64,000 bases of DNA from Natronospirales bacterium (lineage in GTDB: Bacteria; Pseudomonadota; Gammaproteobacteria; Natronospirales; REEB76), in NCBI GenBank assembly GCA_021792635.1, contig JAJYUH010000001.1, positions 10,515-74,514 of the forward strand, in the 5' to 3' direction. How positions within the stretch are numbered: position 1 is the first letter of the stretch; the number at the start of each line of letters is the position of its first letter. Under the pieces are notes generated by a model. That model was given only the letters and a program-made list of their open reading frames with translations. It had not been told where the DNA came from and did not search any database. The translations under genes and the position numbers were made by a program. This document shows, in pieces, positions 43,809-46,932 of the stretch.

Positions 43809-44038
43809 TTGATTTCTCCCTCAATGTGGGTGAGCCGGGGTGTCAAAGCCCCGGACAGGGCAGATTATCCGCCAGTCCATCCACAGTTGGAGTGATTTCA
43901 GTACAAAATGAAAGAACAAACCGGGTTGCAGCCCTAGGCGTTCCGTTAAAGTGTTGATAGTGTAAATATCCTGCACACAAGTGAAACGCCCGATACACTT
44001 TCGGTTACCGGGCGTTGTGTTGCTGTAAAACGGGCTGT

Positions 44039-44809
44039 CTATGAGGTAGGGTTGTGTTGTATGGCAGCTGAGGTCCTCGGAGCGCGCCGTTTCTCAACCT
44101 GCTCACGGATCTGGGGAAGCCTGGTTTTGGTGAATTCCTCCGGCCAGGCCGCGTGTTTTGGGATAGAGGCAAGTAGATCGAGCTTGTCACGACGCCAAGC
44201 TGCCACTCCGGCAGTGCAGGTGGCGAGGGCGGCTATGAACTCGGCGGCATTCAGCGCGGCACGAGTTTTACCCGAATTGAGCAGCTCCATGACCATGGCC
44301 GCGGCCACTTTCGACGCGACGGCCACCCGGTCCCGGTAGTATTCGCCGCCAGCTCCATCCCGACGGCACAGGGTCTCCCCATAGGTGTTTTCGAGTGCAG
44401 AGACGAGAACGTGCAGCGGGTGCATGACTCTGAAACTGTGCTCGCCGACGTCGATTTTGACCGCCCATTTATCGAGCTTTTCACTCTCGATGCCCAAGAC
44501 ACTAGTGAGGAAATCAATTGTGTGGGATTCTCCCTCGATCTGGACGACGACGGTGGCGGCGTTTGGAGTGTGGTCATCAAGCCCTGCGACACGGGTTTGG
44601 CCATGCCACGCGAGGCCAGCGGCAATGGCATCGGCCTTGTTGCCAATGAAATCGATGTCGACGCTGACCGCGGCGGTGACCTTCTTCAGGCGGTAGTGGA
44701 CCGCCCAGGCGTTCAAGGCTTGCCCCCCGACAAGGATTGCATCTTTGGTTCGAGGTGATGCCGCGAGGAGGTCCACCACCTCTGCGAGCGACAAAGACTT
44801 TGGGCTCAT
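44039..44809 (-). CDS. Putative nucleotidyltransferase-fold protein (toxin candidate)
   Basis: LVGGQAL...SVDIDF resembles the hG[GS]...DxD Pol-beta motif, with a third Asp in IDFL. ATGA-coupled to the upstream HTH gene. Confidence 0.6.
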   Translation of the reverse strand: MSPKSLSLAEVVDLLAASPRTKDAILVGGQALNAWAVHYRLKKVTAAVSVDIDFIGNKADAIAAGLAWHGQTRVAGLDDHTPNAATVVVQIEGESHTIDFLTSVLGIESEKLDKWAVKIDVGEHSFRVMHPLHVLVSALENTYGETLCRRDGAGGEYYRDRVAVASKVAAAMVMELLNSGKTRAALNAAEFIAALATCTAGVAAWRRDKLDLLASIPKHAAWPEEFTKTRLPQIREQVEKRRAPRTSAAIQHNPTS

Positions 44810-45246
44810 GCCGGGACATCGACCTGATTAAAGTGGGCACCCTCAATTCGCAAGGCGTTCTCCACGTCATGGCGTTCCAAGGACTTCCGGCCGCGAACGA
44901 CCTCGCCAAGTGCGCGCCGGCGCCGGCGACCTTCCTCGCGAGCCAACGATTGGCTGGATACCAGGGCAACGCTCGGCGCGTCCGCGGAGACAAGGGCAAC
45001 ACGCAGACCTGCAGCGGCGGCGAGCTTTTCGATGGACTGCAGGGACGGGTTGCCCCGGCCGGATTCGATGTCCTTGATGACGTTTAACGCGACGTTCAGC
45101 GAGTCGGCGAATTCCGACTGCGACAGCCCGTTTTCGGCCCGAACCAGGCGAGAGACATCACCGATGGCCAGGGCGCCTTGCTGCATAGCGCGACGCAGCT
45201 CGGCGAGCAAATCTTGGTCGTAGATACGTTGTAGGCGACGCGGCAT
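44806..45246 (-). CDS. XRE-family HTH regulator (antitoxin candidate)
   Basis: GLSQSEFADSL..IKDIESGRGNPSLQSIEKL HTH_3 pattern; GGAG RBS. Confidence 0.85.
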   Translation of the reverse strand: MPRRLQRIYDQDLLAELRRAMQQGALAIGDVSRLVRAENGLSQSEFADSLNVALNVIKDIESGRGNPSLQSIEKLAAAAGLRVALVSADAPSVALVSSQSLAREEGRRRRRALGEVVRGRKSLERHDVENALRIEGAHFNQVDVPA

Positions 45247-45274
45247 ACGGGGCTCCAAGAGTTGCTTACGCTTT

Positions 45275-45302
45275 ATTATAGTCCTTATAAGGGCTTTAAC
45301 AA
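45275..45302 (-). promoter_or_regulatory. Sigma70 promoter with an internal palindromic operator
   Basis: TTGTTA-N16-TATAAT, with the perfect palindrome CCTTATAAGG (45283-45292) in the spacer. Confidence 0.65.
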
Positions 45303-45380
45303 GGCAAGACACGCTTGTCCACTGCGGGCGCTATATTTTTAACACTTTTTAACGGAACGGCTGGGGTTGCAGCCGGGCCG

Positions 45381-46932
45381 CTAGTGCAACAGGCCGAACA
45401 CCGCCACGCCATCCGTTGTTCCCACGAAGACTTTGCCGTTGGCGACGTTGGGGGTGATGAATTTGTTGCCCGGGCCGAACCGGTTGCGGCTGCCGGCCTG
45501 GTTGCTGTCGTAGAGTTCGTGGGCGAGATTGCCGGCGTCATAGGCATACAGCACCGCCGGGTTGCTGTTGTCCACGGCCCAGAGGATGGCGTTGCGGCTG
45601 CCGTCGGCAGAGATGCTGGGTGTGGCACCCGGATAGGGGAATCGGTTGGTGGTTTCCGACACCGGTGTGGCTGAGAGTTTCGCCTGGCGGATGCTGAAAG
45701 CGCGGATCACGTCGCCTGCGGCGCCGTAGTACAGCGTGCCGCTGAAGTAGGCCGGCATACCGAATTCCGGACCACCGAAGCCTTGGGGCAGTTCCTGCCA
45801 GATGTGGTTGGCAGTGGGGCTGAGTTTTCCCATGTTGTCCCGGTTCACCACATAGATATTCCGGTCCTTGCCGGAACCGAAATCCTCGTCGGCACTGGAT
45901 TCCGCCACGGTGAGCCTATGGTTGGCGGTCGAAATTTTGAGGAACACATTGCCGTAGTCATGGTGGATGGGGAAGCCGTTGGCATCGAGCGTGGTAGCAA
46001 AAATGCCGTTACCGGCGAGAAAATAAATGTTGCCGCCGCTGTCGGCTGCCGGGCCGGCGCCCGAGGCCCAGATGGAACCTTCGCTGCCGTTGGGCGTGAT
46101 GTCGAGCACCCGGCTGCGGGTGAGCGTGGATTCGTTGTAGCCGATGATCCAGCCGGTGTAAGGCCGGTAGTCGCAGTGCGAGGACCAGAAGGTATAGACC
46201 ACGCCGTTGAGCAGCAGCAGTCCGGGCCGTTCCTTAGTACTGCGCCGGGGCGAAGGTCACCCGGCCCTTGACGCTGTTGTCGCCCGTGTCGGGATAGCTC
46301 GCCCGTACCGTCACCGGACTGCCCGGCCGCTCGGCACCGGTGGCGAGATCGAGCGCGTGCAGGCGCTGGTAATAACCGCCGGTGCCGTCTTTGGACATGG
46401 CCACTACGAAGAGCGTGCCGTGAGGGCCGGCGGCGGGATCAATCACCGGCGTGGCGGTGACGCCGATTTCCGGCGTCACCTGGCCGCAGCCGCGATCGTC
46501 GCTCGGGGTTTCGCCCGCGCCGAGCGGCGACACCCGCCACAGCACCGCGCCCGAGTCTGCGTTGAAGGCGTACACGCTGTCGTGTTCGGTGGCAACATAC
46601 AGCATGTTGCGGGTTGTGCCGTTGATGCCGAGCGCCGAAACGTACAGCGGCTGGGCGTCCACCTTGCCGTCCACTGGAAAAAAATTGATCCGGCCGAAAT
46701 CAGCGGAGTTGACGTTGGCAGGCGTGAGCACCGTCTCCCTCAAGTTGGCGCCAGTGCGGGCATTGTCGTTGTGGTAAGTGAGTACGTTGACGTTGCCCAG
46801 ACCCGGCGGCGGGGTGCTGCCGCCGGGAGGGCCGGGGGTGATGCTGTCGCCGCCTCCGCCGCAACCCGCGAGCAACAATGTGATACCTGCGACGAGCCCG
46901 CGCAGCGTTCTCTGGTACCTGTTTCCACCCAT
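45381..46932 (-). pseudogene. Decayed PQQ-like beta-propeller lipoprotein
   Basis: Lipobox LLAGC and TYHNDNARTGAN..VDGKVDAQPLY. One extra T near 46236 (CAGTACTAAGGAA, restorable to QYKERPGLLLLNG) splits the gene into ORFs 46234-46932 and 45381-46202. There are apparent internal deletions near ESSADEDFGSGKD. Confidence 0.8.

Follow-up and report, generated by a model that had tools for sequence, protein, structure and literature searches.

A putative toxin–antitoxin module pairing an XRE-family protein with a MenT-like nucleotidyltransferase of an unnamed family

The MenT toxins are nucleotidyltransferases (NTases) that extend the 3′ ends of tRNA and so block translation, and they are regulated through the Ser or Thr that precedes their DxD motif (PMC7450476, PMC11375011). 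MenT1 of Mycobacterium tuberculosis is bi-lobed, with a seven-stranded NTase lobe and a helical bundle, and carries the pattern T39-x-D41-x-D43, while its antitoxin MenA1 is a 68-residue protein that lacks a DNA-binding domain (PMC10435456). In MenT1 and in MenT3 (S78/D80), the hydroxyl residue before the DxD is the site of antitoxin-induced auto-phosphorylation (PMC11375011). In Helicobacter pylori, the gene for the NTase JHP933 (jhp0933) overlaps a small upstream gene in a toxin–antitoxin configuration (PMC7450476). NTase toxins of the MenT/AbiEii group have only recently come to be understood, and what is known of their diversity derives from the DUF1814 profile together with a handful of examples from mycobacteria and streptococci. 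Here we describe a two-gene module from a Natronospirales bacterium (contig JAJYUH010000001.1, positions 10,515–74,514; this 64,000-nt stretch is referred to as the window), in which a 146-residue XRE-family helix-turn-helix (HTH) protein is encoded immediately upstream of a 256-residue NTase. For brevity, the two proteins are called the antitoxin and the toxin.

Fold and active site of the nucleotidyltransferase

The initial annotation of the window had recognised an XRE HTH gene with a basic C-terminal extension, coupled through an ATGA overlap to a 256-residue protein with LVGGQAL, DID and ID motifs, and the coordinates and motifs proved exact on re-reading. Antitoxin residues 34–82 match Pfam HTH_3 (E = 2.9e-10), and the extension that follows is basic at residues 104–121 (EEGRRRRRALGEVVRGRK). 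The NTase fold proposed for the second protein is also borne out. An AlphaFold2 model of the toxin, built from a 52-sequence alignment (predicted local distance difference test, pLDDT, 91.7; predicted template modelling score, pTM, 0.88), contains seven β-strands flanked by helices and, after them, a helical bundle, the bi-lobed layout of a Pol-β NTase. When this model is compared with the PDB using Foldseek, the first five ranks are occupied by five chains of MenT1 (E = 7e-4 to 1e-3, probability 1.0) and ranks 6 and 7 by JHP933, such that all seven are MenT-family toxins (probability 0.99–1.0). TM1012, a fungal NTase-like protein, ANT(2″)-Ia and a tRNA-processing enzyme come next, TM1012 and ANT(2″)-Ia likewise at probability 0.99–1.0. 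Template modelling (TM) scores are 0.32–0.51 for the MenT1 and JHP933 matches and up to 0.58 for TM1012, at 10–18% identity, and the likeness to these structures, as judged from the model, is at the level of fold only. The structures of MenT3, MenT4 and AbiEii are absent from the top 50 matches. Among viral structures in BFVD, poly(A) polymerase catalytic subunits are matched at better E-values and a tRNA nucleotidyltransferase more weakly (E = 0.5).

MenAT1 (Rv0078B–Rv0078A; PDB 8AN4, 8AN5 and 8RR5) is thereby the best structural match, and it shares with the module the bi-lobed toxin, the [ST]-x-D-x-D pattern and a small coupled antitoxin upstream. The two systems differ in several respects. 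The window toxin has no detectable sequence similarity to MenT1 and is 256 rather than about 195 residues long. Its family has no conserved equivalent of the essential MenT1 D152, and its basic residue is an Arg at position 138 or 161 rather than K137. The window antitoxin contains an XRE HTH domain that MenA1 lacks, a PDB search with a profile of the free-standing antitoxins of the family returns no similarity to MenA1, and the family is hosted by Proteobacteria and Myxococcota, not Actinobacteria. JHP933 (PDB 4OK0 and 4O8S) is more distant, at 14% identity and a TM-score of about 0.35, and is itself functionally uncharacterised.

Conservation was assessed in two alignments, one of 52 homologues and one of 140 representatives at 21–40% identity to the window protein (192 sequences in total), representatives here and below being clusters at 50% identity. 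L26, V27, G28, G29, Q30, D51 and D53 are invariant among the 52 homologues, in which D99 is at least 90% conserved. Across the 140 representatives, G28, G29, Q30, A31, W35, D51, D53, F54, D99, G106, H130, P131, S137, N141, F226 and P232 are 91–100% conserved. Motifs kept to this degree in the aligned sequences are far beyond chance, and D51, D53 and D99 are predicted to be the usual metal-binding carboxylate triad. All 192 sequences have Ser or Thr at position 49, giving the family the same [ST]-x-D-x-D pattern as MenT1, and by this pattern S49 is the hydroxyl residue at the putative counterpart of the MenT phospho-acceptor position. The family therefore has both motif I (hGG/GS) and motif II ([ST]xDxD) of Pol-β NTases.

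Two further positions of note lie at the start of the helical lobe. Among the 140 representatives, 94% carry Arg or Lys at position 138, and in the 52-sequence alignment positions 138 and 161 covary as R/Q versus Q/R (25 R/Q, 25 Q/R and two A/R). Because the swap is reciprocal, a basic side chain is always kept at one position or the other, which suggests that the two are adjacent and share one catalytic basic group; this group may be the counterpart of the essential motif III Lys in the helical lobe of MenT toxins (MenT1 K137, MenT3 K189). The window's clade carries Q138/R161 and most other clades R138/Q161, and the window protein itself is A138/R161 (44396–44398 and 44327–44329). Its alanine raises the question of whether the copy in the window is a remnant, inactive or in decay, that has lost Arg138 and in which only the repressor functions. 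Besides the window protein, A138 occurs only in its close relative P0002 and, judging from 98% identity, probably in P0001, and decayed copies do exist elsewhere, as in a fused homologue in which D-V-G replaces D-x-D. Against such decay, the window protein keeps R161, R161 takes the place of R138 throughout the XRE1 clade, the other catalytic residues are intact, and the open reading frame is full-length with its coupling preserved. The ratio of non-synonymous to synonymous substitution (dN/dS) relative to the homologous locus L012 is 0.18 for the toxin, on the basis of 75 nucleotide differences, and 0.17 for the antitoxin (90% and 87% protein identity, respectively), and both genes are under purifying selection. 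We regard a remnant as quite improbable.

Family distribution and exchange of antitoxin partners

The 256-residue protein has no significant match in Pfam, NCBIfam, PADLOC or PHROGs, and phmmer and profile searches of the PDB return only spurious Ig-Fc or NuoG matches. A word-indexed search yields 97 clusters without a Pfam domain, and "hypothetical protein" is the label of the few that have a source name. When 1.84 billion representatives are searched with a profile, the family grows to 2,312 members at E ≤ 1e-3, 666 of them at E ≤ 1e-30. Its hosts are Gamma- and Betaproteobacteria, Myxococcota and plasmids; toxin homologues are carried by 18 plasmids, 10 of them conjugative and others mobilizable, and the annotated plasmid records all read "hypothetical protein". 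NTP_transf_8 (PF12281), DUF6036 (PF19502) and DUF2204 (PF09970), themselves uncharacterised Pol-β-type NTases, are the sole Pfam NTase families touched by any member, through sub-threshold matches in four, two and one sequences, respectively (best E = 2.6e-4), and the window toxin matches none of the three. A KfrB domain (PF18790, best E = 2e-12) occurs in 9 of the 140 representatives. Literature searches produced no description of an XRE-paired NTase toxin, and the NetFlax paper with its supplements has no NTase toxin entry; this lack of an earlier description is absence of evidence within the searched libraries and literature only. The pair thus matches no described system in these four databases or the searched literature, as the initial annotation had supposed. 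Its further claim of a new antitoxin–toxin combination holds for the NTase, which belongs to no family searched, and needs revision for the pairing, since members of this one toxin family occur with several antitoxin architectures, of which the XRE type is one.

We surveyed 38 further loci, obtained by looking up distant homologues (27–56% identity) and by scanning species-representative genomes. Nearly every locus has a small gene on the same strand directly upstream of the NTase, and the stop codon of this partner overlaps the assigned toxin start at 31 of the 38 junctions, usually by 4 or 1 nt. Plasmid copies have a 65–71-residue upstream gene with a 4-nt overlap in each of the three examined. 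A Pfam scan of 29 partner proteins (E ≤ 0.01) assigns ParD_like to nine (best E = 2e-16), XRE HTH domains of two kinds to six and PhdYeFM to two (E = 6e-9), and further partners are domain-less proteins of 57–72 residues. Many family members have partners that resemble MenA1 in size and in the lack of a DNA-binding domain (PMC10435456). Toxin clades track the type of partner, and domain-less partners nest inside the ParD clades.

The C-terminal tails of all partners can be aligned (MAFFT) as a basic helix, then a nearly invariant Gly and a charged residue after it, and then a second segment that precedes a conserved Phe. Profile–profile comparison by hhalign connects the window-type tail (residues 90–131) to the free-standing proteins (probability 82%, E = 1e-5), ParD-type tails to a second free-standing group (95%, E = 6e-8) and the second XRE type to the ParD type (73%, E = 3e-5). 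A shallower alignment of the window-type tail with the free-standing proteins recovers the same register (probability 32%, E = 5e-4). Since the tails align and are in part linked by their profiles, the partners appear to share a C-terminal module, probably a portable toxin-neutralising unit carried on interchangeable DNA-binding heads. Type II antitoxins are typically built in this way.

Partner exchange also bears on the toxicity of the NTase. Numerous NTases have no toxic role and XRE regulators often adjoin unrelated enzymes, such that the pair could be a non-toxic enzyme with its own HTH regulator. The enzyme might then modify small molecules or antibiotics, as ANT(2″)-Ia does, or it might repair or tail RNA; the presence of ANT(2″)-Ia and TM1012 among the structural matches (E = 7e-3 to 3e-2) is in keeping with this. 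A plain regulator, however, is not expected to be swapped for ParD-like, Phd/YefM or DNA-binding-domain-less 60-residue partners with a shared tail, nor does it account for the consistent coupling by 1- or 4-nt overlaps, and MenT-family toxins outrank the ANT enzymes. On this balance an ordinary enzyme with its regulator is improbable.

The identity of the partners weighs similarly on polarity. NTase antitoxins exist, and in a type VII-like arrangement the NTase would neutralise, as MNT does for HEPN toxins, with the small partner or some third component as its substrate. MntA–HepT complexes are present in the fold list, yet far down and not significant (E = 0.4–2). The partners lie upstream and carry classical antitoxin DNA-binding domains, Pfam detects no HEPN family in the 29 partners (E ≤ 0.01) or in either window protein, and the window partner, unlike that of MNT–HEPN systems, is an XRE HTH protein. 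Reversed polarity is accordingly very remote.

The HTH domain had been likened in the initial annotation to those that precede HipA kinases. This resemblance persists in part: couple_hipB (TIGR03070), the model of HipB-type and Y4mF XRE antitoxins, which are likewise small XRE antitoxins encoded 5′ of a toxin, is the best NCBIfam match of the HTH protein. The match, however, scores 38.5 bits where the cut-off is 71.65. The gene that follows encodes an NTase with no match to a kinase family, no HipA kinase is present, and the C-terminal tail is unrelated.

The two-gene cassette recurs in unrelated genomic neighbourhoods. In the window and at most other loci the neighbours are housekeeping genes, for example those for MAPEG, an M28 peptidase and a histidine kinase, and the window holds no second copy of the toxin. 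A search of sequencing runs located the exact sequence of the module in DNA metagenomes of mine drainage, mine tailings and sediment, and the same search found no RNA runs that hold it.

Evidence for a probable toxin–antitoxin module and a proposed mechanism

The recurrence of the cassette in unrelated contexts, the exchange of partners for ParD_like and PhdYeFM proteins, the translational coupling and the carriage on plasmids lead us to conclude that the gene pair is probably a genuine toxin–antitoxin module. Its architecture is type II-like: the operon is bicistronic, a small upstream HTH antitoxin is coupled to the downstream gene, a promoter is overlain by a palindrome, and partners are exchanged across the family. 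The toxin–antitoxin assignment made in the initial annotation is thus strongly supported by the comparative survey of neighbourhoods.

A module of the same two proteins could also act in phage defence, as an AbiE-type abortive-infection system that kills or arrests the cell on phage infection, and this is compatible with the toxin–antitoxin assignment. The MenT/DUF1814 toxin group has AbiEii as its founding member (PMC10435456, PMC7450476). Members of the present family reside on plasmids, and one member adjoins an integrase, a PLD-like nuclease and a transposase. On the other hand, the NTase matches none of the PADLOC-DB v2 families and nothing in PHROGs, the HTH protein matches only generic HTH models, and the neighbours in the window and at most loci are those of housekeeping regions rather than defence islands. 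We consider a defence role unlikely, though a serious alternative. AbiEi/AbiEii, MenAT3 and MenAT4 (DUF1814/PF08843 with COG5340) do resemble the module in that an NTase toxin with motifs I and II is encoded 3′ of a DNA-binding, autoregulating antitoxin. They differ in that the window antitoxin is a small protein of the XRE/ParD/Phd type rather than a COG5340 winged helix with a C-terminal domain, and in that the window toxin lacks motif IV.

Several observations weigh against a MenT-like toxin–antitoxin module. The likeness to MenT1 is moderate, with a TM-score of 0.41 when normalised to the query and 0.51 when normalised to the target at an E-value of about 1e-3, and searches of Pfam and profile searches of the PDB provide no sequence-level link to any characterised NTase. 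PF08843 (AbiEii/DUF1814) matches neither the window protein (E ≤ 1) nor the 52 (E ≤ 0.1) or 140 (E ≤ 0.01) members. The essential motif IV Asp of DUF1814 proteins (MenT1 D152, MenT3 D211) has no conserved counterpart: after D99 no Asp reaches 60% conservation in the 140 representatives, the sole acidic residue to do so is E190 (74%), well outside the expected position of motif IV, and the polar residues conserved around that region are instead H130, S137 and N141. The window toxin has Ala in place of the family-typical Arg138, and no phage-defence context is evident in the window. For the antitoxins, the similarity of tails between classes is modest (hhalign probability of 32–95% for the linked pairs) and the tails are compositionally biased towards Arg, Ala and Glu. 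The remaining class pairs, including every Phd/YefM comparison, are not significant by hhalign (probability 0.1–9%), and a plain hidden Markov model of the short antitoxins, run against 4,957 open reading frames, matches the tails of other classes only at E = 0.07–9. The AlphaFold2 model of the antitoxin is poor (pLDDT 47, from six close sequences), which leaves the picture of a helical tail weak. Toxicity and neutralisation are deduced by comparison, not experiment, for every member of the family.

Because both the Pfam model and motif IV fail, we do not file the NTase as a DUF1814/AbiEii member. We see it instead as belonging to a large sister family, not described before in the searched sources, whose members are MenT-like NTase toxins in fold and probably in action and have antitoxins of modular build.

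The following scheme of toxicity, substrate, neutralisation and operator binding is one that we infer largely from the MenT systems. The 256-residue NTase would probably act as a toxin by adding nucleotides to the 3′ ends of RNA. Its likeliest target would be the CCA end of tRNA, as for MenT1, MenT3 and MenT4, where extension would block aminoacylation and translation; by analogy this chemistry is a fair candidate, although somewhat less than likely. The basic, putatively helical C-terminal ~50 residues of the antitoxin would probably bind the toxin and cover or re-shape its active site. The tail might in addition induce auto-phosphorylation of S49, as MenA1 does to T39 of MenT1, a step that we put forward as doubtful. 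The XRE HTH domain would probably bind the palindrome that spans the promoter and thereby repress the operon.

Joined into a single picture, these elements would make the pair one representative of an extensive branch of MenT-like NTase toxins that has gone unrecognised, with at least 2,300 clusters (50% identity) in Proteobacteria, Myxococcota and their plasmids and with a catalytic lobe that lacks the canonical DUF1814 motif IV. Its members would be silenced through auto-phosphorylation of Ser/Thr49 by a portable neutralising peptide of ~40 residues, present alone or on two XRE types, ParD-like ribbon-helix-helix proteins or Phd/YefM. The whole of this picture is speculative and rather unlikely to be right in every part; if true, it extends the MenA1/MenT1 mechanism far beyond mycobacteria. 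Apart from this picture, the locus points to a sizeable family with the same fold, the same [ST]xDxD centre and a different second lobe, present in environmental Proteobacteria and Myxococcota and on conjugative plasmids, which Pfam, NCBIfam, PADLOC and PHROGs all overlook. The family offers a natural experiment in antitoxin modularity, in which one putative toxin-binding tail occurs either by itself or attached to DNA-binding heads of at least four kinds, and allows a direct test of the generality of antitoxin-induced auto-phosphorylation of an active-site Ser/Thr. In practical terms, a new Pfam/NCBIfam family and models for toxin–antitoxin and defence finders could replace "hypothetical protein" on thousands of genes.

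Promoter, gene boundaries and neighbouring features

Table 1 Features of the module, with positions counted in the window
Feature	Position	Strand	Details
Antitoxin gene, 146-residue XRE-family HTH protein	44806..45246	minus	ATG at 45246, stop codon 44806–44808; open reading frame and Pfam HTH_3
Toxin gene, 256-residue Pol-β-fold NTase (MenT-like, unnamed family)	44039..44809	minus	ATG at 44809, stop codon 44039–44041
ATGA overlap of antitoxin stop (TGA) and toxin start (ATG)	44806..44809	minus	Read from sequence; translational coupling
HTH DNA-binding domain, antitoxin residues 34–82	45001..45147	minus	Pfam HTH_3 / HTH_31
Antitoxin C-terminal extension, residues 97–146, SSQSLAREEGRRRRRALGEVVRGRKSLERHDVENALRIEGAHF...	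44809..44958	minus	Proposed toxin-neutralising module; same register as the free-standing 57–72-residue partners
NTase motif I, G28-G29-Q30 of LVGGQAL (L26-V-G-G-Q-A-L32)	44720..44728	minus	Invariant in 52, 98–99% in 140 sequences; strand-to-helix turn of model
NTase motif II, S49-V-D51-I-D53	44651..44665	minus	D51 99%, D53 100% conserved
D99, third conserved carboxylate (I98-D99, IDF)	44513..44515	minus	97% conserved; β-strand 94–101 of model
Start of helical lobe: H130-P131, S137, A138, N141, R161	44327..44422	minus	H130 93%, P131 99%, S137 91%, N141 98%
Sigma-70-like operon promoter	45275..45302	minus	−35 TTGTTA 45302–45297, 16-nt spacer, −10 TATAAT 45280–45275
Imperfect palindrome over promoter, core AGCCCTTATAAGGACT at 45280–45295	45270..45305		Candidate operator for the HTH antitoxin
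Shine–Dalgarno GGAG, 6 nt before ATG 45246	45253..45256	minus	Read from sequence; kept in homologous loci L001 and L012

The predicted promoter matches 10 of 12 consensus positions, and one such site is observed compared with 0.6 expected in shuffled sequence (Table 1). At the same site the relative L012 has a perfect 28-bp palindrome, TATAATAGCCCTTATAAGGGCTATTATA, and it is plausible that the palindrome serves as the operator of a dimeric XRE repressor. A longer GTG start for the HTH gene at 45312 is unlikely and was rejected because the promoter sits 3′ of 45312, homologues and gene calls start with MPRR (146 residues), and GGAG precedes ATG 45246. The close antitoxin homologues, of which a word-indexed search provides only six, are likewise 146 residues long and start with MPRR.

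Directly 3′ of the toxin stop codon on the minus strand lies an 8-bp inverted repeat, AACGCCCG ... CGGGCGTT, with an 18-nt loop (43984–44017). This repeat, which was not called by a consensus scan, may be a terminator. Directly upstream of the operon, the minus-strand gene at 45381–46932 looks split into two open reading frames in different frames (46234–46932 and 45381–46202). It has the appearance of a lipoprotein-like β-propeller, with a PQQ_2/BamB-like match of 26.0 bits against a cut-off of 27.6, and the reading frame at 45381–46202 lacks a Pfam match. The near-identical contigs L001 and L002 are likewise called as two genes here, and the split gene may be a frameshifted pseudogene.

Two loci elsewhere in the family depart from the usual cassette. 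At L010/L011, the family member is longer, at 378 residues, and has a 68-residue partner; the island around them also carries a phage-type integrase, a PLDc_2 nuclease-like gene and an ISL3 transposase. In Aquincola agrisoli MAHUQ-54, the sole cultured isolate among the genome matches, a ParD-like antitoxin and the NTase form one 436-residue frame (L031, 2470–3780). Its catalytic motif reads S-R-D-V-G, with the second Asp lost, and this locus looks like a fused, inactivated copy.

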